Source: Anolis carolinensis (Eukaryota). From it: DNA of 64,000 bases. The notes beneath the pieces are model-generated. The model did not search any database. It had not been told where the DNA came from and worked only from the letters and a program-made list of their open reading frames with translations. The position numbers and the translations under genes are program-made. The stretch's first letter is position 1; each line of letters begins with the position of its first letter. The stretch is from positions 253,467,747-253,531,746 of the forward strand of contig NC_085842.1 of NCBI RefSeq assembly GCF_035594765.1. The letters are read 5' to 3'. Below are positions 15,403 to 56,942 of this stretch, piece by piece.

Positions 15403-15537
15403 CAGTGGTTCTCAACCTGTGAGTCCTCAGGTGTTTTGGCCTACAACTTCCAGAAATCCCAGCAAGTTTACCAGCTGTCAGGATTTCTAGGAATGGAAGG
15501 CCAAAACATCTGGGGACTCACAAGTTGAGAACCACTG
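15403..15537. mobile_element. hAT-type MITE (TIR CAGTGGTTCTCAAC); relatives at 20884-21015, 24073-24231 and 33724-33860
   Basis: Fold-back structure; perfect 8-bp TSD TCATAGAA. Confidence 0.9.
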
Positions 15538-20674: not shown

Positions 20675-21305
20675 GTTGACCACAGACTCACATTGGAGAT
20701 CTAGACATCTCCAGGCATCTATGTGTCCTCCAACACAATTCCATATTATGCTTTGGAAAAAAAATTAAGACGGCATTCAATTCAGATAAGAACATCAGAA
20801 GTTGGGGATGATAAAGCCATTCAAGATCTTCTTGAGAAGCAATACAGCCCCAACCGCTGGGAATTGTATGCCTCATGCTAAAGCAGTGGTTCTCAACCTG
20901 GGGTCCCCAGATGTTTTTGGCCTTCAACTCCCAAAAATCCTATCAGATGGTAAACTGGGATTTCTGGGAGTTGTGGGCCAAAAGCATCTGGGAACCCCAA
21001 GTTGAGAGTTTCTGTGCTAAAGCAAGACCCTATACTCTGATCTAGAGGATCAGGGTATAATTGACCATAGACTCACGTTGGAGACCTAGACATCTCCAGA
21101 CATCTATATGTCCTCCAACACAATTCTATGTTATGCTTTGGAAAAAAATTAGACAACATTCATTTCAGGTAAGAAAAATAGCTTTCAGAGGGAACATCAG
21201 AAGTTGGGGATGGTAAGGCCGTTCAAGATCTTCTTGATGAGCAATAAAGCCTCAACCGCTGGCAATTGTATGCCTCATGCTAAAGCAAGACCCTGATCTA
21301 GAGGA
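20675..21305. repeat. Local tandem duplication of about 240 bp (20675-21047 and 21061-21305) in SLC35D2 intron 7
   Basis: Copies align from ttgacca.agactcac to ctgatctagagga. Confidence 0.9.
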
Positions 21306-23288: not shown

Positions 23289-24376
23289 ATTTCTAGTGTC
23301 ATGGCTCAGCACCTGACATGGCATTACCAAAAATGTGACATCTCCTACAAGCTTTTGGAAGACAACTGTTTGCTGGCAGTGATGTAGTGGTGTGTCCATT
23401 AGTGATGTGAACAGTGAATTGGGTGAAATCCAGCCCGATCCAGCTATCAACACCTCAAAAACTGCATGATCACTCTGAAGCTTTCAGGAAACTCTGGAGT
23501 AAATCCCACATTCCATCGTCATGAAGTAATGGCTGGATGCAGTGGGTGTGTGCTGAATCCAGCCTGTGCATCAGTAACTAAGTAGTGAGTCCACTTTAAT
23601 TTGGCTACATAGACAGAGCTTAAATCTCAGGACAGAGGATCAGGCAGCAAATGGCAATGAATACAATGTGTATAGCACTACAGTTGAAAAACCTTTGTTA
23701 ATATTAAGTGGGCTTGTGGACAGCTAGGCCACTGAAGGGAATACTATAAGGGATGTTGACAAACATTATTTCAGGTTTCTCTAACTTTGATTTTCTCCGT
23801 AATCCTCAGGCTATTACTGTACCTGCTTAACTATCCCCGACCCTTTTAGTGGCTTAAGAAAACCAATTTATTGAACAACAAAAATGTCCTTAGTAGAAGA
23901 CTTTTCTGAAACATTTTGCAGCAAATGCTGGACCATCATCAACACCATCATCTCTGGTTATGTAGGGTGGGAATCACAGAGTCCTCTAAATGTTGTTGAA
24001 TTACAATTTCCAGTACTCCTCTCCACTAGCTGGTTTAGGCTGGAGAGAACTGCAGTTCAGCAACATCTAGAGCAGTGTTTCCCAAACTTTGGTCTTACAA
24101 GGTTGGGTTTGTTTTGGGTTTTTTTTTTTTTGATTACACCTCCCAGAATCCTTGATTACTAGCTAAGGCAGTTGAGACTTCTGGGACTTGATGTCTGAAA
24201 GAAGCTGGAGAATTGGAGTTTGGGAATCACTGATCTGGAGAACCACATGATTCTCACTATAATCTAGAAAGCCATTGACTAACATTGTTTTACAACGGCC
24301 CCATCCTATACAAATACTTATAACCATTTATACAATGCAACATTGCAATTAAAATGAAAAGTGTTTAAAAGCTTAC

Positions 24377-32927: not shown

Positions 32928-33987
32928 ATAAATACTGCATCATAACTCTTACCCAGAAATGAACCATTCTGCTTTAAATAAAATGGTGAGGTGAGAACTC
33001 AATCCATCCTTGGCAAACCTTTCAAAAAACATCAAACCCCTCTGTTCTCTCCATTATGATGCCAATTCTGGCATTTTTGAATGGTGGTGGCAGGTAGAGA
33101 TGGCTGGTCCCCTGTGCCTTCTCCTCTCTAAGGAATGACCTCCAACTAATCCATGAGTTATATCAAAATCCAAAACCTATACTCATTGTATACATGAGTC
33201 AACTTATACATATATATACAGTAGGAAGTTTGATCTCCATTTCTCAGAATTCTCTGTTATCACTGATTTCCATTCTGTTCCAGAAATTGAACTTGGAAGT
33301 CTCTGGAAAGTTGAGAGACGATGAAGAAATACTTTAAATAACATAAACATCCTGGTGTCAGTACTTCAGGGATCTGAGAATTCCTTGTGTTTTTATCGAC
33401 TGCTGCACAGGCTAAAAGGTTAGCTGAGGACATGTCAACTCTGATTTGGTTAGAGAAGTGCTCAGCTTTTAAACAGAAGAGCCAAGGGTCAAGAAAGACA
33501 TGCTACAAAGGGGTCCAAACCAGCTCAGAACACCAACAATGGAACGGGCTAGGACTGTTAGGAATTGTGGGAGTCCAAAACACTTGGAGGGCCAAAGTTT
33601 GCTCATGCCTACTATAGAGTTTGATATATAGGGCATGTGGGGATTGCTTCCTGCCCAAATGGAATCTTAGCATCAGATCTACCCAGTGGCTCTCAGTTCA
33701 ATGGGGCTATGTATTTAATCTAAAGCAATGGTTCCCAACTTTTGGGCTTCCAGGTGTTTTGGACTTCAACTCCCAGAAATCCCTGCCAGCTTACCAGGTG
33801 TTAGGAAGTGTGGGAGCTGAAGTCCGAAACATTCGGAGGCCCAAAGGTTGGGAACCACTGGTCTAAAATTTCAATGTAGAGTATCCAATATGCTGAACTG
33901 TTTCCTAGAATTAGTTCAGCACTTTGGATAGCTCCTTTAAAGTTTAAATTAAAACCTAAAGTGGTTTCTCTTCTCCATTGACATGGC

Positions 33988-38161: not shown

Positions 38162-38350
38162 ATTGTCGAAGGCTTTCATAGCCGGAATCACAAGATTGTT
38201 ATGTGTTTTCCAGGCTGCATGGCCATGTTCCAGAAGTATTCTCTCCTGACGTTTCGCCCACATCTATGGATGCCTGCCATAGATGTGGGCGAAATGTCAG
38301 GAGAGAATACTTCTGGAACATGGCCATGCAGCCTGGAAAACACACAACAA
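38162..38350. mobile_element. Penelope pseudo-LTR palindrome (74-bp arms, 7-nt loop) in SLC35D2 intron 1
   Basis: Arms 38196-38269 and 38277-38350 are reverse complements with 2 mismatches. Confidence 0.88.
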
Positions 38351-39146
38351 CCAAGGTTATGATGGCCATTTATTTCCAACGGGATATGTGCCCTGAGACT
38401 GGGTGCAGTTATTTCCGATTCCCCCTTGTTAGTAATAGTAAGCTGTACTTTTCTGGATCTATACACAATTAAAGTCTGTTTGTTTTAGAACTGGATGTGA
38501 ACTTGTAATAAAGGAAGAGTTTATTGAAGAAAGTGCTGGTTTCTCAAATAAATACACCCGAAAGTTGGAAGGAAAGGTGTTGGTACCTTTCCTTCCAGCA
38601 ATAAAACCTGTTTGCTGGCTTTTGATGAATCACAGATCGCACCCTGCTCTCCCTTTCAGGCTCTTCAGGTGCCAGGAGAGAGACCTTTGGAACCGGGGTT
38701 TATTCTAAGCGTGGCACCTGCACAAACTTTTGAAAGATCCCAGAGGTTATTGCTTAACACTTTGACCAAGTGAGAGTTGGAGGGGGAAATGGGGCCTTGT
38801 TCCAGGCATGGGCCAACTTGGGCTCTCCCTCCAGGGGTTTTGGACTTCAACTCCCACCATTCCTTACAGCCTCAGGCCCTTTCCTTTTGCCCCTCAGCCG
38901 CTTAAGCGGCTGAGGGGCAAAAGGAAGGGGCCTGAGGCTGTAAGGAAAGGTGGGAGTTGAAGTCCAAAACCCCCGGAGGAAGGGCCCAAGTTGGCCCATG
39001 GATGTAGATGCAGCCAAAGTCTCCAAGAAGTAGGTCCTGGCCCTGATCGCGGGCAAGAAGACGTGAAACGGATGTTGGGACATGCAATCCAGCCCCTGGG
39101 AGGCTTCAGGCGAGGCTTTGCTCCATCCGAGCTGCTTGCTCCTCAC

Positions 39147-39295
39147 CTGTAAGCGGTCAGCACCGCCTTGTTGACCAGGACCATGGTGAAGGAGCAGATC
39201 CCGTAGAAGAGGGCGGAGAGCAGCTTGGGCAGCGGGGAAGCAGCCGAAGAAAGAGAAGCTGCAGCCAGCTCCGCGCCCGCCGCCTTGGCTCTCAT
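39147..39295 (-). CDS. SLC35D2: Nucleotide-sugar transporter SLC35D2, exon 1
   Basis: ATG at 39295; MRAKAAGAELAAASLSSAASPLPKLLSALFYGICSFTMVLVNKAVLTAY + AG|gtgagg; the 12 exons total 1008 nt = 335 aa + stop. Confidence 0.92.
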
Positions 39296-39316
39296 CGCTT
39301 GGCGCAGGCGCCCGGA

Positions 39317-40285
39317 CCATTCGCCCAGCGGAGGGAACGGGAAAGAAAGCAAGAGCCCCGAGCTCGGATCAGGGCCACGCCCCCTATTCGCCGACCACGC
39401 CCACTCTTTGATCGCCACGCCCACTCGCAACCTGCCAGGCCAAAGGAGCCTGCATTCGCTCAGCGGAGGAAACAGCCAAAGCTCGGGTTGGGCCACGCCC
39501 CCTGCTCGACGGCCACGCCCACACTCTCCATCGGTTGGGCCAAAGGAACTCAGTGGAGAAAGCAGCTAGAGCCAGGCTTGAGGCCGCGCCCTCTGCTCGA
39601 TCGCCACGCCCCCTCCTCGATCGCCACGCCCACTCGAATCCTGCCCAGCCAAAGGAACCTCCCATTCGGTCAGCGAAGGAAACGGCCCAAGCTCGGCTTG
39701 GGGCCACGCCCCTTACTCGACTGCCACGCCTACTCGTTCTATCTGCTCAGTCAAAGCAGCTCAGCGGAGGAAACGGACAGCGCTCGGCTTGAGGCCACGC
39801 CCCCTGCTCGTCGGCCACGCCCCCTGCTCGTCGCCCACGCCCACTCGCAACCTGCCAAGCCAAAGGAGACTCCATTCGCTCAGCGGAGGGAAAGGCCAGA
39901 GCCCGGCTTGGGGCCACGCCCCCTACTCGACGGTCACGCCCGCCTCTCTGAGTGCCACGCCCACTCGATCTATCTGCTCAGCCAAAGGATCTCAATGGAG
40001 GGAAATGGACAGAGCTCGGGTTGGGCCACGCCCCCTGCTCAATCGCCACGCCCACTCGCAACCTGCCCAGCCGAAGGACCCTCAGCTGATTCGCTCAGAG
40101 GAAAACAGCTAGAGCTCGGGGTGGGCCACGCCCCCTGCTCGGAAGCCACGCTCATCCGCTCCACAAAGGGAACGGGACTAGGAACCTGCCCCGCCCATTC
40201 GCTCCATCTGCTCAAGGAAAGCCGGAGTCAGCCCTGCCTTCCTCGCGTATCGTTCTCTCCCTCCCTCGGCCACGCCCACCCTTTC
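39317..40285 (-). promoter_or_regulatory. SLC35D2 CpG-rich promoter formed by a tandem array with about 18 Sp/KLF-type CCACGCC boxes
   Basis: About 8 units (120, 90, 120, 90, 120, ~113, ~100, partial), each with 2-3 GCCACGCCC-like motifs about 20 bp apart, directly upstream of the ATG. Confidence 0.85.
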
Positions 40286-41244
40286 CCTCCCTTTGAAACC
40301 GTTGCAGCACCGTTCGAGCGCCCCCTAGCGAGGATTCCCTTAACAACACCCCCCCCTCTATATTTTCTTTCCCACTCCTCTTCCTTCATTGACCAGGTAA
40401 GAAGCTAAAAACAAAGGATGAGAAGACACGCAATGCAGGAAGCCTCGACATCGTAGAATGAATGCAGTTTGGCGCCACTTTAACTGGCCTGGCTCAATGC
40501 TATGGGATCTTCGGAGTTGTAGTTTGACAAGGTCTTTAGCCTTTTTTTTTGCCAGTGTGAATACTTTTCAGGACCACACGCTGCTCTTTAGACCCTCTCC
40601 TCCCTACTCTACCGACTTTGCAAAAGGCTCTACAATGGGCCCTTGGTATTTGCTATCGTCCTAGATAACAAAACCCATGGCTGCTCCGGACTCATTATTT
40701 ACACTGGGATACAAGTATAGGGAGATGGCATCCCTTAAATGGCAAAACCAAGATTTGGTTATTGGATTAAAAAAAATACATTCCAGCTGTAGATGGTCGA
40801 ATCTGTGGAAAAATTAAATACAGAATTAAAATTACAATAGTATAAAAGTGTGGCAAAATTGCCTCAATGTGGGCAGTGCATTGCTTCACAGGGACAACTG
40901 GAGCCCCTTACATACAATTGTAATTCAAAGTGGAATTTGCATTTCTAAGTCATTACTATAACACGTATCATTTAACATAAATGTATTTATGTACCCTTCA
41001 AATAATTACCATAATTATTAGCTACTAAAGGGCACATATAATTTGAAAGGACACCCTGTATTTATTTTTATTTTATAAAACCCACTGGGGGCCCTTCTAC
41101 ATTGCCATATAAAATCCAGATAATCTACTTTGAACTAGATTATATGGTAATGTTGTCTTTGCCTTCAACTGAGGTTGAGTATGATGAAATGAAGGTCTCC
41201 AAATGGATTTCTGTGGCTGAGCAGAAATTGTACATCTTGGAGAC

Positions 41245-48892: not shown

Positions 48893-49699
48893 TTGTCTGA
48901 GTTTTCCAGGCTGTATGGCCATGTTCCAGAAGCAAGTTCTCCTGACGTTTCGCCCACATCTATAGCAGGCATCCGCAGAGGTTGTGAGGTCTGTTGGAAA
49001 CTAGGCAAAGGGGTTCATATATCTGGTGAAGGTCTAGGGTGGGAGAAATAACTTTCATCTATTGTGTAAAGTGAATTTTGCAATTAATCACCTCGATTAC
49101 CATTGACAAGCCTTGCAGCTTCAAAGCTTGGATGCTTCCTGCCTGGGGAAATCCTTTGTTGGGAGGTATTAGCTGGCCTTGATTGTTTCATGTCTGGCAT
49201 TCCCCATTTTCAGAGTGTTGTTCCTTTCTTTACTGTCCTGATTTTAGAGTTTTCTAATACTGGTAGCCAGAGTTTGTTTATTTTCATGGTTTCCTCCTTT
49301 CTGTTGAAATTGTCCACATACTTGTGGATTTCAGTGGCTTCTCTGTGTAATCTGACTTGGTGGTTGTTAGAGTGGTCCAGCATTTCTGTGTTCTCAGATA
49401 ATATACTTTGACCATGTTGGTTCCTCAAGTGCTCTGATATAGCTGACTTCTCTGGTTGAGCGAGTCTGCAGTGCCTTTCATGTTTGATTCGTGTCTGGGC
49501 AATGCTGCATTTGGTAGTCCCTATGTAGACTTGTCCACAGTTGCATGGTCTACGGTAAACTCCTGCAGAAGTGAGAGGATCCCTCTTGCCCTTTGCTGAA
49601 CGTAGGATTTGTTGGATTTTCTTAGTGGGCCTGTAGATAGTTTGGAGGTTGTGTTTCTTCATCAGCTTCCCTATGTGGTCAGTGGTTCCCTTAATGTAT
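48893..49699 (-). mobile_element. Penelope-like retroelement 3' part: GIY-YIG endonuclease remnant + pseudo-LTR with hammerhead motif
   Basis: ORF 49210..49662 has GVYRRPCNCGQVYIGTT..RIKHERH..SAISEH..REATEI..FNR (GIY-YIG/Uri domain); degenerate hammerhead at 48941-48981. Confidence 0.9.
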
Positions 49700-49789
49700 T
49701 ATTAGTATTATAATATTTACTTATACCTCGCTGTATCTCCCCAAAGGGGACTCAAAGCGATTTGACATAAAACCATTAATATACAAATA

Positions 49790-50067
49790 TGCAAACATTA
49801 CTCCACAGCTGCTGCAGAAATGCCTCCAACAGACAAGAGTTCTTTCTCTCACCTGATCTCCCTCGGGAGGGCATTCCAAAGCCAGGAGGCCACTACCGAG
49901 AAGGCCCTCCCCGGTAGATCTTATACCAATATACCTCACAACCTCCGAGGATGCCTGCCATAGATGTGGGCGAAACGTCAAGAGAGAATTCTTCTGGAAC
50001 ACGGCCATACAGCCCGGAAAACTCACAGCAACCCAGTGATTCCGGCCGTGAACGTCTTCGACAACAC
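49790..50067 (+). mobile_element. Penelope-like pseudo-LTR, inverted relative to the 48893 copy
   Basis: cacaacctccgaggatgcctgccatagatgtgggcgaaacgtc..cagcaacccagtgattccggcc; reverse complement of 48900-48990. Confidence 0.85.
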
Positions 50068-50403
50068 AACTCCCCCTTTCCTCTTCCTAGACCACAGGAA
50101 AAGAGGGTCCCGCCAACTGCGCGTGCGCCACCTGTTTCTCGCCGCGCGCCCGCACTCCCACCCGCTGATTGGCTGCCGCGCCTGCCTGCGCGCGAGACGG
50201 CAGTTTAAAAGCAAAGGAGGGAACACCCCCTCTCTGCCCCACCCCCCAATCGATGGTGTTTTGGCGCGCGGAGCTGTCGTCACAGGGAAGCGTGAATCAG
50301 AAAAGGGGGCGGGGTTGCTGGAATCCCCCCCCCCCCCCGCGCGCCAACGGCCTTTCTTTCCTTCTCCCCTTCCCGTGTAACCCTTCCCGCGCTGAGGGCT
50401 CAC

Positions 50404-50730
50404 CCGCAAGTGCCCGCCGAGGCCGCTGTCCGGGCTGCCGGCTTCGTCGTCTTGAGGAGGCGGCTGTGGGGCGGCTCCTCCTCCTCGCGCTCCGTCGGCG
50501 CGGAGAGCCTGTGGCGGCGGGCTGAGCGTGACGTTGTGCGCGTTCTCCCCCCAGCGCCACGGGTAGACCATGAACTCGCTGAAGCCCGGGCTGGTGGGCA
50601 CCGGGGGCCCCAGGGCAGACGCTGCCACCGCCGCCTCCTCCTCCTCGCGGGGCCGCTTGACCGGTGTGGTCTTGATGACGGAGACCAGGACGCGCTTCGG
50701 GGACTCCGCCGGGCGCAAGAGCACCGACAT
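50404..50730 (-). CDS. ZNF367: C2H2 zinc finger protein 367, exon 1
   Basis: SPKRVLVSVIKTTP and PTSPGFSEFMVYPWRWGENAHNVTLSP are ZNF367 signature blocks; CGG|gtgagc donor; 327 nt; the 5 exons total 975 nt = 324 aa + stop. Confidence 0.93.
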
Positions 50731-50779
50731 CCCGTCTCGCTCTGGCCCGCTTCCCGACCGCGCCGCGACTCGCCAGCCC

Positions 50780-51125
50780 GAGCCGAGACTTTTCCCGCGT
50801 TACGTTTCGCGCCTGGGCGGGGGGTGGACGTCAACAGATCGACAGTCGTCTCCAACCAATCACCTCACAGCAAAATGCCGGACTCTTCGGCATCAAAGGG
50901 AAAAGAGGCGCGCGGGGTGGGGCTTAGCTATAACCCGGACTGCCGGTTGGATGGCGGTGACTCAGCGCTAGCCAATAGAATTCGAAAGCAGGCTGAGAGG
51001 GGCGGGGCTCCGGCAGTGAAAGACTGTTTAGAGGCGATTGGCCTTCGCGCTGGAAGGAGGCGGGACCTGTAGTACTGGCGGTTAAATCGGCAGTAAACAT
51101 GTTGGTCTGTTTTGGCGCGTTATTT
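50780..51125 (-). promoter_or_regulatory. ZNF367 CpG-island promoter, cell-cycle type (E2F + NF-Y + GC boxes)
   Basis: TTTTCCCGCG 50790, TTTCGCGCC 50805, TTTTGGCGCG 51110; CCAAT 50856 and 50972, ATTGG 51037; GC boxes near 50815 and 51000; TTCGAA (CHR-like) 50981. Confidence 0.75.
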
Positions 51126-51269
51126 ATACTGAGGCTGGGCCTGGCCTGTGGTAACTGTCTTGCTGTATCTGTTTATCTCGTGGTGCATCCATTTAAACTG
51201 TGACGCTGAAGCAATAATACACAATAGTATTGAAATGCGGGAAGTTATTTTTGAGATTGTAACTTCCAG

Positions 51270-51668
51270 AATTGGTTGCTGTGGGTTTTGGGCTGTATGG
51301 CAATGTTCCAGAAGCATTCTCTCCAGACGTTTCGCCCACATCTATGGCAGGCAACCTCAGAGGTTGTGAGGTATATTGGAAACTAGATCAGTAAGATTTA
51401 TATATCCGGAATGTTCAAGATGGGAGAAAGAACTCTTGTGTGAGGCAGGTATGAATGTTGCAAATGGCCACCTTGATTAGCATTGAATGGCCTTGCAGCT
51501 TCAAGGTCAGGCTGCTTCTTGCCTGGGGGAATCCTTTGTTGGGGATGTTGTCTGGCCCTGATTGATTCATGTTTGGAACGTCAGGAAAGAATGCTTCTGG
51601 AACATAGCCATACTGCCCAAAAACCTCATAGCAACCCAGTGATTCTGGCCATAAAAGCCTTTGACAAC
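51270..51668. mobile_element. Penelope-like fragment (minus, 51270-51575) joined to an inverted pseudo-LTR piece (plus, 51576-51668)
   Basis: Same family as 48893-49200; the inverted piece starts at AACGTCAGG. Confidence 0.85.
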
Positions 51669-52372
51669 TTCCGGAATCCAGTGCACCTTCACAGTATTTA
51701 TTTATGGTGTCAGAAGCAAATTGAGAGTACAGTTTTAATGTATTAAAAAAACCCTCAAAGTTAAAAACTTGGCCTTATACTAAATTTCTTTTGGCCAGAA
51801 GCTGGCCACTTCAAGTGCCTCTGTAAGAAGGTCATCCACTGTGCATGCAGCAGGGCACAAACCATTGTAAGTGATCTGTGGTTTGCTCTTCTCCATACTG
51901 CATGTCCACTTTGTAGTCCCATTTCTGAAGATTTGCTCTGCATCTCATGGAACCTTTTCAAGCCTCCTCTATTTAATGTTTTGTCTGTTTTATAATGTGT
52001 CATTTTATTTCCTGAAGTGTATATCTTCTTTGGTTTGCAGTTTTCTTAGCTCTATGTACTTGAAGAAGTGGGAGGGGCTGCAGACCATGTGACTGGTTCA
52101 CTGACTGGATTATTTTTAAAGGGATGACAGTTGAAGAATGACAGTTGAGGCTTCAGACTTGAGTACAGAAGCCAGTGTTAGGTGTTTGAAGACAGTACAC
52201 AAATATAAATATATGGCATAAGTATAAAAACAACAATACATGTAACATACCAATAAAAATAGTAAGAATTATAAAGATTCCTAAAATGTAGTAAAACCTG
52301 TGAAAAAGCTGGCTATCTGCAATAAAAAGTGTAGAGTGGCACAATCGGTGGGTCATTGAGATGGTGGATCAT

Positions 52373-52647
52373 TGAGTACACAGTCCCAAAAGCCTGTTTG
52401 AAGAGCTATTGTTTTTAAAATTTGCCCGAAAGGCTTGAAGGGTGGGGGCTAGCCTAATTTTTTTTAGGGAAAGTATCCAAGAGCCAGGGAGCCAACACTG
52501 AGAAGGCCCTCTCGTCCCCACCAACCATATCTGAGACAGTGGTGGGACCAAGAGAAGGGCCTCCCCAGCAGATCTCAATGCCCATACCGGTTCATAGAAG
52601 GAGATGCAGTCTCGAAGATAGGTTGGACCTGAAGCATATAGGATCAT
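52373..52647 (-). mobile_element. L2-like LINE 3' fragment; a related plus-strand fragment lies at about 8690-8960
   Basis: GPTYLRDCISFYEPVWALRSAGEALLLVPP..WILS..IRLAPTLQAFRANFK resembles the L2 ORF2 C-terminus. Confidence 0.6.
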
Positions 52648-52737
52648 TGGTCTCTAACTGAGCAAAGTTCCATTTTGTCTTCTGTGCCATCAGCTGGAAA
52701 CCCCTCCCTCGAGGAACATGCTATGCTAATATAGTAT

Positions 52738-52741
<4 letters not shown>

Positions 52742-52805
<64 letters not shown>

Positions 52806-52960
52806 ATTGCATATAATATACAATATAATTTACAATAATAAATAATAGTTAATATATTGTATGTACATGTAATATTGATAATAATATAATGTAATGCAAT
52901 ATAATACTACTAATAATATAGTAATATTAATTATATATTATTTATTACATGTAATATTAC
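52742..52960. repeat. (GT)n(AT)n microsatellite followed by an AT-rich low-complexity tract
   Basis: Directly visible. Confidence 0.9.
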
Positions 52961-53579
52961 TAGTAATATTAAAGTATAGTGGTGTGGTGCAATATGCTGG
53001 TATATAGTGCTAGTGTTGTGCTGTGCTGGTGATATAATACGCTGTATGTAAATATTTGTAAGCCACTCTGAGTCCCCTTCGGAGTGAGAAGGGTGGGATA
53101 TAAATGTACTAAATAAATAAATAAAGTCGCCTTCTAGGTTTGTGCTTTTGGACTCATCACAAAATTTCAATATAGCATGTTGTCTTCAAGGCATTTCCAA
53201 CTTCAGGTGTCCTTAAGGTGGCTCCTTATGGGATTTACTACGCAGGATTGTTGCGAAAAGAAACGGGAGGGGGAGGAGAGCTGTTTTGAGATTGGCCAAT
53301 CTGCACCATGAGTTCTGGCCAGGTTTTTAATGTACTTGCTGTGTTTTATGTGTTTTATGATGTGGTATATTTATTTTGTTTATATTGTTTTAATTCATGT
53401 ACTATGTTTTTACTTATGTTTTGTTAGGCTCGTTTCCTTGTGAGCAGCCCCAAGTTCCTTCGGGGAGATGGTGGTGGGATATAAAAATAAAGTATTATTA
53501 TTATTATTGCCCATACAGGCTTAAGAAGAATAATCAAAAGAGTTAACTTATCAGGATACCCTATTTGGTGGAGACAAGA

Positions 53580-53900
53580 CTTGATGAACCAACCTAGATA
53601 CAGCATATTATTTGGTAACACAGAAATGCTGGACCACTCTAACAACCACTATGCAGACTACGCAGAGAAGCCACTGAAATCCACAAGCATGTGGACAATT
53701 TCAACAGAAAGTAGGAAACCATGAAAATGAACAAAATCTGGCTGCCAGTATTAAAAAAAAACTCTAAAATTTGGAGAGTAAAGAACAACACTCAGAAGAC
53801 AGGAATTCAAGACATGAAACAATCAGGGCCAGCTAAACCTCCTAACAGGATTCTCCCAGGCAGTAAACAACCAGTCCTCGAAACCGCAAGGCCATTGAAG
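53580..53900 (+). mobile_element. Penelope-like GIY-YIG C-terminal fragment
   Basis: ..NTEMLDHSNNH..EATEIHKHVDNFNRK*ETMKMNKIWLPVL; reverse complement of 49110-49430. Confidence 0.85.
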
Positions 53901-54310
53901 TTACTACTGAAACTGGGCTTGGCTTGGGGCCGCTGACTTCTCTGCCAATGCTCAACTTTCAACTCTGTTCCTCCTGGGCTTTAGTGGTGACTTTTGTTTT
54001 TATTTTGCTTTCAGATTAAAAAAAAATATTATTCTTTTTATTTTGTGGAGACTTCTCTTAATTTTCTTGCTGGCTCATGTTTATCACTGATGACTGAGCT
54101 TAGCAAAATATACAATTTAATTATATTATGTTTATTTAAGTTCAATTATGTATTTTTATTTAATTTTATAAGTTTATTGTGAGATTGTTTTATCTACCCT
54201 TTTTAACTTGATTCATCATTGTCTGTTTTCGGCATTGAATGTTTGCCATCTTGTTACCTTTGTTGGAAACTGCTCTGAGGTCCTCGGTGAGATAGGGTGG
54301 GGTCCAAATA

Positions 54311-54344
<34 letters not shown>

Positions 54345-54500
54345 TTGTTGGAAGGCTTTCATGGCCGGAATCACTGGGTCGCTGTGAGTCTTTCGGGCTG
54401 TATGGCCATGTTCCAGAAGATTGACCTCTGAGGATGCTGGCCACAGATAAAACTTCAGAAACATGGCCATATAGCCCGAAAGACTCACAGCAACCCAATG
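54345..54500. mobile_element. Penelope pseudo-LTR inverted repeat (48-bp arms)
   Basis: Arms 54372-54419 and 54453-54500 around a spacer containing cctCTGAGGAtgc. Confidence 0.8.
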
Positions 54501-54516
54501 GTAATCATTATAATTA

Positions 54517-54839
54517 AAGTAGAGTCTCACTTATCCAACATTCACTTATCCAACATTCTGGATTATCCAACACATTTTTGTAGTCAATGTTTTCAATACA
54601 TTGTGATATTTTGGTGCTAAATTCGTAAATACAGTAATTACTACGTAGCATTACTGCCTACTGAACTACTTTTTCTGTCAAATGTGTTGTATAACATGAT
54701 GTTTTGGTGCTTCATTTGTAAAATCATATCCTAATTTGGTGTTTAATAGGCTTCTCTTTAATCTCGCCTTATTATTCAACATATTCGCTTATCCAACATT
54801 CTGCCGGCCCGTTTATGTTGGATAAGTGAGACTCTACTG
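54517..54839. mobile_element. Tc1/mariner-type MITE; second copy at 57403-57720
   Basis: TIR AGTAGAGTCTCACTTATCCAAC; TA flanks. Confidence 0.85.
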
Positions 54840-54939
54840 TATTATTATTAAAAGCTAATCAAGGTGAGCTCTGTCTTGGGCTCGTCCATGAGTTCACGGA
54901 GTCAGAAGCAACTGAACGAATAAACAACAATCACGGTGC

Positions 54940-55133
54940 CCAATTATTACATTTACACCTGCCTCAAGCAGGCAAGAGCTCTTTCTTCCACCCTGGACTT
55001 TCCACAGATATATAAACACTCTCGCCTAGTTTCCAACAGACCTCACAACCTCTGAGGATGCCACAGATGCAGGCGAAACATCAGGAGAAAATGCTTCTGG
55101 AACATGGTCATACGGAAAACTCACAGCAGCCCA
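54940..55133 (+). mobile_element. Penelope pseudo-LTR abutting the HABP4 promoter
   Basis: TATATAAA 55009, hammerhead motif 55049-55085, then aggagaaaatgcttctggaacatgg. Confidence 0.85.
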
Positions 55134-55852: not shown

Positions 55853-56808
55853 GTAGGAAGCCACAGGGGCGCATGTACGCACTGGAATTAATGCAGTTTG
55901 ACGCCGCGGCCACTTGCTATGGAATCCTGGGAACTCTGCTTTGGCAGAGAAGGCCAAAGGCCTGGTAAAAAGTTCCACACCATTGAGCCCATAGCATTGA
56001 GCCGCGGAAGTTGAGGTGGTGTCAAAGTGCATTAATGCTTTGATATAGATCAGGTCTGGGCCAACTTGGGCCATCCGGGTGTTTTGGACTTCAACTCCCA
56101 GCATTCCTAACAGCCTCAGGCCCTTTCCTTTTCTCCCTCAGCCGCTTAAGGGTTAAGAAATGCTGGGAGTTGAAGTCCAAACCACCTGGAGGGCCCAAGT
56201 TGGCCCAGGCCTGATCTATACTGCAGAATGAATGCGGTTTGAAACCACTTTCACTACCATGCTTCAATGGGAGCAGGGACTTTACTGGTTTTGGCTTTCT
56301 CTGCCAAAGTGTGCTGGTGCCTCACCAAATTAGAACTCCACAGCATTGAGCAATGGCAGTCCAAGTGATGCTAAGCCATATTCATTCTACAGTATTCGAA
56401 TAAATCAGCTCTGATCAGTCTACCTCCAAATCTCTCCATGTTGGTGATGCACTTTTTAGTCATGCGTCCTTTCGCGACACGGTAGTTCGGTATTTCCATT
56501 TTACTGGCAAACCAACCCCTTGTAAGAATTTCATACAATATGTAATATCTATCTATATTAATATATGTTTCATGTAATCTCGATAAAAGAGGCTTGGAAT
56601 TTTCGATAGCTGCTCCACGTGGTTTATCACAAACTTCATTGTCAACAGATTTTTTTTGTTTCAATTTTTGAGGTAATTACTACAACTCAATCAATAAATC
56701 GTACAAATTATTAAGGCTATAACAGTATTTACGCTTGAACAACATTAGCCTTTGTTTGTTGGGCAGAGTATTTTTTTATGTGACTAGTGACTTCAAGTGA
56801 CACTAGTG

Positions 56809-56942
56809 CAGGCATGAGCAAACTTCAGCCCTCCAGGAGTTTTGGGCTTTAACTCCCACAATTCCTAACAGCCTACCGGCTGTTAGGAATTGTAGGAGTT
56901 AAAGTCCAAAACTCCTGGAGGGCTGAAGTTTGCCCATGCCTG
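56809..56942. mobile_element. hAT-type palindromic MITE (TIR CAGGCATG.GCAAACT); relatives at 38803-39000, 56051-56213 and 57779-57889, halves at 33550, 48732 and 58659
   Basis: Near-perfect hairpin; 8-bp TSD CACTAGTG on both sides. Confidence 0.9.

Follow-up and report, generated by a model that had tools for sequence, protein, structure and literature searches.

Identification of the hammerhead motifs

The window analysed here, a stretch of 64 kb from Anolis carolinensis (contig NC_085842.1), covers the ZNF367–HABP4 locus with its two divergent genes and carries a group of hammerhead ribozyme motifs, four near-complete ones (copies A to D) and two half motifs. These are very probably mutated, likely inactive minimal type I hammerheads from the junction between the pseudo-long terminal repeat (pLTR) and the open reading frame (ORF) of Poseidon_Ac (PAc), a Penelope-like element (PLE), and they come from separate 5'-truncated insertions. 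The hammerhead of this element is already known, having been described and assayed in 2024 (Frangieh et al. 2024, PMC11167929; this paper, PMC4209133 and PMC8557442 are cited here from excerpts). All six features occupy the coordinates and strands given in an initial annotation of this DNA, which had also recognised a minimal type I hammerhead of a Penelope-like element. That annotation placed the motif in the pLTR; it is found instead to straddle the pLTR/ORF boundary, with the start codon included. The near-complete copies are as follows.

48941..48981, minus strand: copy A hammerhead, with the ORF start codon at 48972; sense orientation within ZNF367 intron 1
49942..49982, plus strand: copy B hammerhead; start codon at 49951; antisense in ZNF367 intron 1
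51323..51363, minus strand: copy C hammerhead; upstream of the ZNF367 start codon
55049..55085, plus strand: copy D hammerhead; exact CUGAGGA core

The majority sequence of copies A, B and C was compared by eye with the published PAc template, and the two agree at 41 of 41 positions. In PAc the ORF starts at stem II and the cut lies 26 bp past the start codon (PMC11167929); the distance from start codon to cut site on the A/B/C majority is also 26 nt. The first methionine of P0002, an A. carolinensis RT/GIY-YIG protein of 836 residues in which the reverse transcriptase (RT) domain is present, maps by tblastn within the motifs at 49951, 48972 and 38270. Upstream of copy A, a frame of 162 residues (P0001) matches the C-terminus of P0002 with 83% identity. 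A tblastn search of the window with residues 75-654 of P0002 gave no significant match, and no RT-coding sequence was found there. The absence of the RT domain and of a full tandem is expected, since the copies are 5'-truncated. The order of ORF end, pLTR, ribozyme and ORF start around copy A indicates a partial tandem. The endonuclease remnant gave no domain call in Pfam and no match in PDB, and its GIY-YIG label follows the domain order of PMC11167929.

The window family shares with PAc the species, the start codon at stem II, the 3' ends at the tail positions described below and a GIY-YIG end of the ORF that precedes the pLTR, in addition to the 41-nt majority sequence and the 26-nt cut distance. 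It differs in that all its copies in the window are truncated and mutated, with no RT domain and no intact tandem. PMC11167929 was the only paper found on Penelope hammerheads or ribozymes in Anolis, and a term search of a 2026 retrozyme preprint met neither Anolis nor lizard. The motifs are genuine yet unremarkable: the ribozyme, the element that carries it and its behaviour in vitro are already in the literature, and remnants of this kind are very numerous in the genome.

The C-terminus of the PAc endonuclease was also observed outside the window. The annotated A. carolinensis AKAP7 isoform P0007 terminates in it, and a calmodulin methyltransferase isoform from Pogona, P0006, likewise matches it. 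Either exonisation or an annotation artefact would account for these two proteins.

Hammerhead copies and their defects

The majority sequence has the CUGANGA and GAAA core, the palindromic 15.2-16.2 positions, a G10.1-C11.1 pair and an extra base after A9. Copies A, B and C each differ from it at 2 of 41 positions. In copy A these are A6C, which the initial annotation had written as the core CUGCGGA, and one change in loop II; its pairs are complete in helix I (3/3), helix II (6/6) and helix III (4/4), the ACGU palindrome being intact. Copy B carries U4C, already visible in the core CCGAGGA, together with a helix I mismatch that the initial annotation overlooked. In copy C both defects, A9U in the core CUGAGGU and a helix I mismatch, had been seen; A9U also destroys the ORF start codon. 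Copy D was read correctly as well: its CUGAGGA core is intact, a 4-nt deletion cuts helix II to 3 bp, and ACAU replaces the ACGU palindrome, leaving only 2 of 4 pairs of helix III in self-pairing.

Each window copy therefore carries a lesion in the core or in helix III, in agreement with the earlier statement that every copy is defective; a strict hammerhead descriptor likewise finds none of them. The helix II 3' arm, GYRGGC in the proposed family consensus, is corrected here: the majority arm is GUGGGC, and GCAGGC is confined to copy D. Variation in helix II among the window copies is limited to copy D, whose deletion removes the pairing partners.

Both half motifs, at 38268 and 54425, are present. 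The one at 38268 is an arm of a fold-back, and the opposite arm (minus strand) bears a second half motif at 38245-38269 with GAAACGUC intact. This partner had not been listed before, nor had an additional PAc fragment that begins at 51577 on the plus strand.

Anatomy of the insertions

The insertions to which these motifs belong are listed below; fragment-end positions are counted relative to the PAc ORF start codon.

48898..49698, minus strand: 5'-truncated PAc insertion with copy A (ORF end 49698-49213, pLTR, ribozyme, ORF start to +75)
49926..50068, plus strand: short PAc insertion with copy B (-25 to +118, tail included)
51274..51668, both strands: inverted PAc pair with copy C (minus arm 51576-51274, to +83; plus arm 51577-51668, +24 to +115)
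54931..55133, plus strand: PAc pLTR remnant with copy D, ending at +85; 5' edge approximate
38163..38355, both strands: fold-back PAc pair joined within the ribozyme (plus arm to +86, minus arm to +114)
54346..54500, both strands: inverted PAc pair (minus arm from +40 to +116; plus arm to +88, with an internal deletion and the 5' half motif 54425-54447)
53579..53892, plus strand: second PAc GIY-YIG C-terminal and pLTR remnant, without ribozyme

The nine ends of ORF-start fragments fall into two groups and a single outlier. Four lie at +83 to +88 (copy C at +83, copy D at +85, the 38268 arm at +86 and the 54425 arm at +88), and four at +114 to +118 (the 38245 arm at +114, the 51577 arm at +115, the 54346 arm at +116 and copy B at +118); copy A alone ends at +75. 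Eight of the nine ends thus belong to the tail-signature classes of PAc. The published initiation of reverse transcription is at 111-118, with the tail between two start sites (PMC11167929), and we infer that +85 is the second start site. Reverse transcription would then start 85-118 nt into the ORF, which means that the ribozyme is included even when an insertion is very short. The abundance of the ribozyme and the isolated occurrence of the motifs can be explained by this inclusion in short insertions, and a local function is not needed.

The arms of the inverted pairs are identical at 53 of 58 positions in 51274..51668, 43 of 48 in 54346..54500 and 72 of 74 (97%) in the fold-back 38163..38355, where the CUGA core is missing from both arms. 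In all three pairs the arms differ in length by about 30 nt. Inverted 5'-truncated copies and tails of 30-40 bp are described for PLE insertions (Craig et al. 2021, PMC8557442); the three pairs of the window resemble these inverted pairs, with the one arm about 30 nt longer, and differ in being very short. The 5' edges of the inverted arms lie at -2, +8, +24 and +40, and none lies at the cut site at +30, the numbers being too small to test. The window illustrates the biology of PAc through its two classes of 3' ends, its fold-back insertions and the decay that follows insertion.

Within the fold-back, the stretch 38190-38350 is predicted to form a single long hairpin of -151.6 kcal/mol. The fold-back 38163-38355 has a sub-threshold Rfam miRNA match and could yield double-stranded RNA if it is transcribed.

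Family sequence in contigs

Contigs of 4 of the 24 listed runs (41,032, 35,818, 20,913 and 2,446 contigs) were aligned on copy B; the shares given here refer to contig depth and not to copy counts. Among the loose ends listed, pile-ups occur at 50035/36 (+85/86) and at 50068/69 (+118/119), with AT-rich DNA beyond them. Position 49981 is G in 96-99.8% of the family depth, which restores helix I, so the helix I mismatch of copy B is private to this copy.

The CpG sites of the ribozyme (C11.1/G12 and C15.2/G16.2) are changed in 5-26% of the depth. Control CpGs are changed in 12-17% at 50015/16 and in 27-34% at 50043. The ribozyme CpGs decay like the control CpGs and give no sign of constraint. 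Once inserted, the copies seem to undergo neutral decay.

Folding and mechanism of the family ribozyme

Cleavage by the PAc hammerhead is RNA-catalysed in vitro and requires the PAc protein, not its endonuclease; C3G and G8C each abolish it, and the double mutant rescues it in part (PMC11167929). The expectation in the initial annotation that the family consensus is active holds to the extent that cleavage has been published, but only with the protein of the element. In an intact PAc the ribozyme overlaps the start codon and, going by the published reactions in vitro, cuts 26 nt downstream of it only when the protein is present.

ViennaRNA predicts helix II with a probability of 0.91-0.99 in copies B and C and in the majority sequence, and helix I is predicted not to form in the monomer. 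A CCUCA sequence is present upstream of all four copies. Its predicted pairing with the core UGAGG has a probability of 0.81-1.0 in copies C, D and the majority; copy B keeps 4 of 5 pairs, and in copy A the pairing is lost. The predicted cost of freeing the core is 6.2 kcal/mol; with the upstream 16 nt shuffled it is 4.5 ± 0.9 kcal/mol, and 17 of 300 shuffles reach the former value. These predictions weakly support a pairing of the upstream CCUCA with the catalytic core. Fig. S2C of PMC11167929 may already show the upstream hairpin, no literature search having been aimed at such a hairpin. If it forms, it bears on the question why the PAc ribozyme needs a protein.

The PAc protein may be a chaperone, opening the folds that compete and bringing two RNAs to pair. 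It is predicted to be a dimer (PMC11167929); in the excerpts of that paper the word 'dimer' refers in 5 of 5 occurrences to the protein and not to the RNA. Minimal hammerheads of PLEs are inactive as monomers and weakly active as dimers (Cervera and De la Pena 2014, PMC4209133), and by analogy with that study a dimer mechanism is plausible for PAc. The ribozyme has no helix III of its own, and two RNAs would most likely pair through the ACGU palindrome.

The PAc ribozyme could be a protein-triggered off-switch of the mRNA. In such a model the CCUCA lock would be opened by the dimeric protein, the palindrome would pair two RNAs, and cleavage would serve negative translational feedback rather than a step of insertion. 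Cleavage would sever the start codon from the ORF, which makes translational feedback possible; a statement of it was not found in the excerpts of PMC11167929. This proposal is considered rather unlikely.

A somewhat better, though still doubtful, chance is given to the idea that the ribozyme matters little to the intact element and is a passenger, kept mainly through its overlap with the start codon, with codons one to ten and with the region that is copied in each insertion. Catalytic mutants of the ribozyme insert normally in vitro, and RNA-seq shows no reads starting or stopping at the cut site (PMC11167929). Naiad elements without canonical hammerheads still reach very high copy numbers (PMC8557442). 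On the other hand, C3 and G8 precede the start codon, are reported to be conserved across Anolis species and show the compensatory rescue (PMC11167929), and minimal hammerheads recur across PLE clades (PMC4209133). The passenger idea concerns the role of the ribozyme in the family and is compatible with the assignment of the local copies as decayed PAc remnants. The in vivo role of Penelope hammerheads is likewise a question for the family and not for the local copies.

Descriptor scans and activity of the local copies

The whole window was scanned on both strands with hammerhead descriptors, and the hits were compared with those in 100 dinucleotide shuffles. The relaxed settings were picked with the copies already known, so these tests are not blind. 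The strict descriptor gives 0 hits in the 64 kb (shuffle mean 0). The exact core, with any dinucleotide allowed, gives 1 hit, copy D (shuffle mean 0.01; reached by 1 of 100 shuffles). Three hits (shuffle mean 0.08) are found when up to one core mismatch is allowed and the palindrome and 5 bp or more in helix II are required, and the loosest descriptor gives 5 (shuffle mean 0.82), of which the one at 23899-23942 is unrelated; neither number is reached by any of the 100 shuffles. The RNA descriptor, which the initial annotation had named as a check, detects the copies in relaxed forms only. An exact pattern that leaves the core unspecified has no match in either metagenome_contigs or viral_contigs.

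Several results count against the assignment of the motifs to decayed PAc hammerheads. The Rfam search, likewise named as a check, gave 65 matches in the whole window and 2 in each of two sub-regions at E<=10, none of them a hammerhead; this lack fits a motif without helix III. Dimer folding with ViennaRNA places the hammerhead dimer of the majority sequence at -18.0 kcal/mol and the dimer minimum at -35.3 kcal/mol, in models that ignore the non-canonical core. The C-to-T change expected at 49946 (U4) is absent from the differences listed in the contig comparison, which have no entry for 49926-49970. This silence is probably due to the closeness of the site to the clipped ends of the aligned pieces, and U4 in the consensus is backed instead by the published sequence and by 4 of 5 copies in the window. 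Copy A, sense in a host intron and with all its helices, keeps a small chance of residual activity. In the excerpted literature A6C and U4C are reported to lower hammerhead activity strongly but not always to zero, and such variants of other hammerheads retain some activity.

A chance resemblance of the motifs to a short consensus is extremely improbable, even with no Rfam match and no strict-descriptor hit. The 3 relaxed hits stand against the shuffle mean of 0.08, all copies are homologous across 100-300 nt, and the majority sequence equals an assayed ribozyme. A chance origin is refuted by this homology to the PAc ribozyme.

As judged from their sequences, the local copies are probably not active. 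It is very unlikely that one of them has been co-opted, with copy A slowly cleaving the ZNF367 pre-mRNA with the help of the PAc protein or a second RNA, or copy D acting on transcripts that run toward HABP4. Copy A lies sense in ZNF367 intron 1 with helices I, II and III fully paired, and its A6C change disrupts the upstream hairpin that competes with them, the pair probability there being at most 0.02. A6C hammerheads do cleave in Mn2+ or high Mg2+, according to the literature excerpts; at 0.3 mM Mg2+, however, the same change lowered the rate of one ribozyme from 0.30 per minute to 3.6e-6 per minute. The parent PAc ribozyme is silent without protein (PMC11167929), and freeing the core of copy A from other folds still costs about 4.5-4.8 kcal/mol. 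Furthermore, the ORF remnant beside copy A is degraded, copy D cannot form helix III by itself, and ZNF367 intron 1 has no two near-complete copies on one strand.

Comparison with other hammerheads

Dimer cleavage of PLE hammerheads was reportedly also described by Lunse et al. in 2016. The Rfam hammerhead families, for example Hammerhead_1, share the CUGANGA...GAAA...UH core with the window motif, which differs in being without helix III.

The window family resembles the minimal hammerheads of PMC4209133 in its type I topology, the absence of a helix III loop and the palindromic 15.2-16.2 positions, and also in the extra nucleotide between A9 and G10.1 and the G10.1-C11.1 pair. Those hammerheads are mostly isolated and some form pairs on opposite strands, as do the window copies, which are mostly isolated with close opposite-strand pairs. 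The helices are of different length: in Schistosoma helix I has 4-5 bp and helix II 7-8 bp, while the PAc family of the window has 3 and 6 bp. The reptiles named in the excerpts of PMC4209133 are a turtle and snakes, and Anolis was not found among them.

Host genes and neighbouring features

The first coding exons of the two host genes are placed as follows.

50404..50730, minus strand: ZNF367 coding exon 1; 100% identity to A. carolinensis P0012
55537..55854, plus strand: HABP4 coding exon 1; Pfam IHABP4_N, E 2e-34

Five coding exons of ZNF367 were placed on the minus strand, and its intron 1, which holds copies A and B, spans approximately 50403 to 47343. The interval between ZNF367 and HABP4 contains copies C and D as well as the 54425 half motif, and copy D precedes the HABP4 start codon by about 450 bp.

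An open frame on the minus strand at 39143-39260 ends in ...LLSALFYGICSFTMVLVNKAVLTAYR. It resembles exon 1 of a nucleotide-sugar transporter, which by its sequence and synteny would be SLC35D2. The region 39300-40300 is GC-rich, and its long stop-free frames translate into repeated units. The sequence suggests a tandem repeat in a promoter region; four frames tested there gave no match in Pfam.

The Rfam miRNA matches in the window are hairpins of repeats and lie below the gathering scores. Among them, matches to mir-5408 occur below threshold, on both strands, at 15429-15511, 20910-20988, 33752-33834, 38833-38974, 56077-56187 and 56835-56916. These stretches form a second family of short palindromic repeats, presumably a miniature inverted-repeat element.

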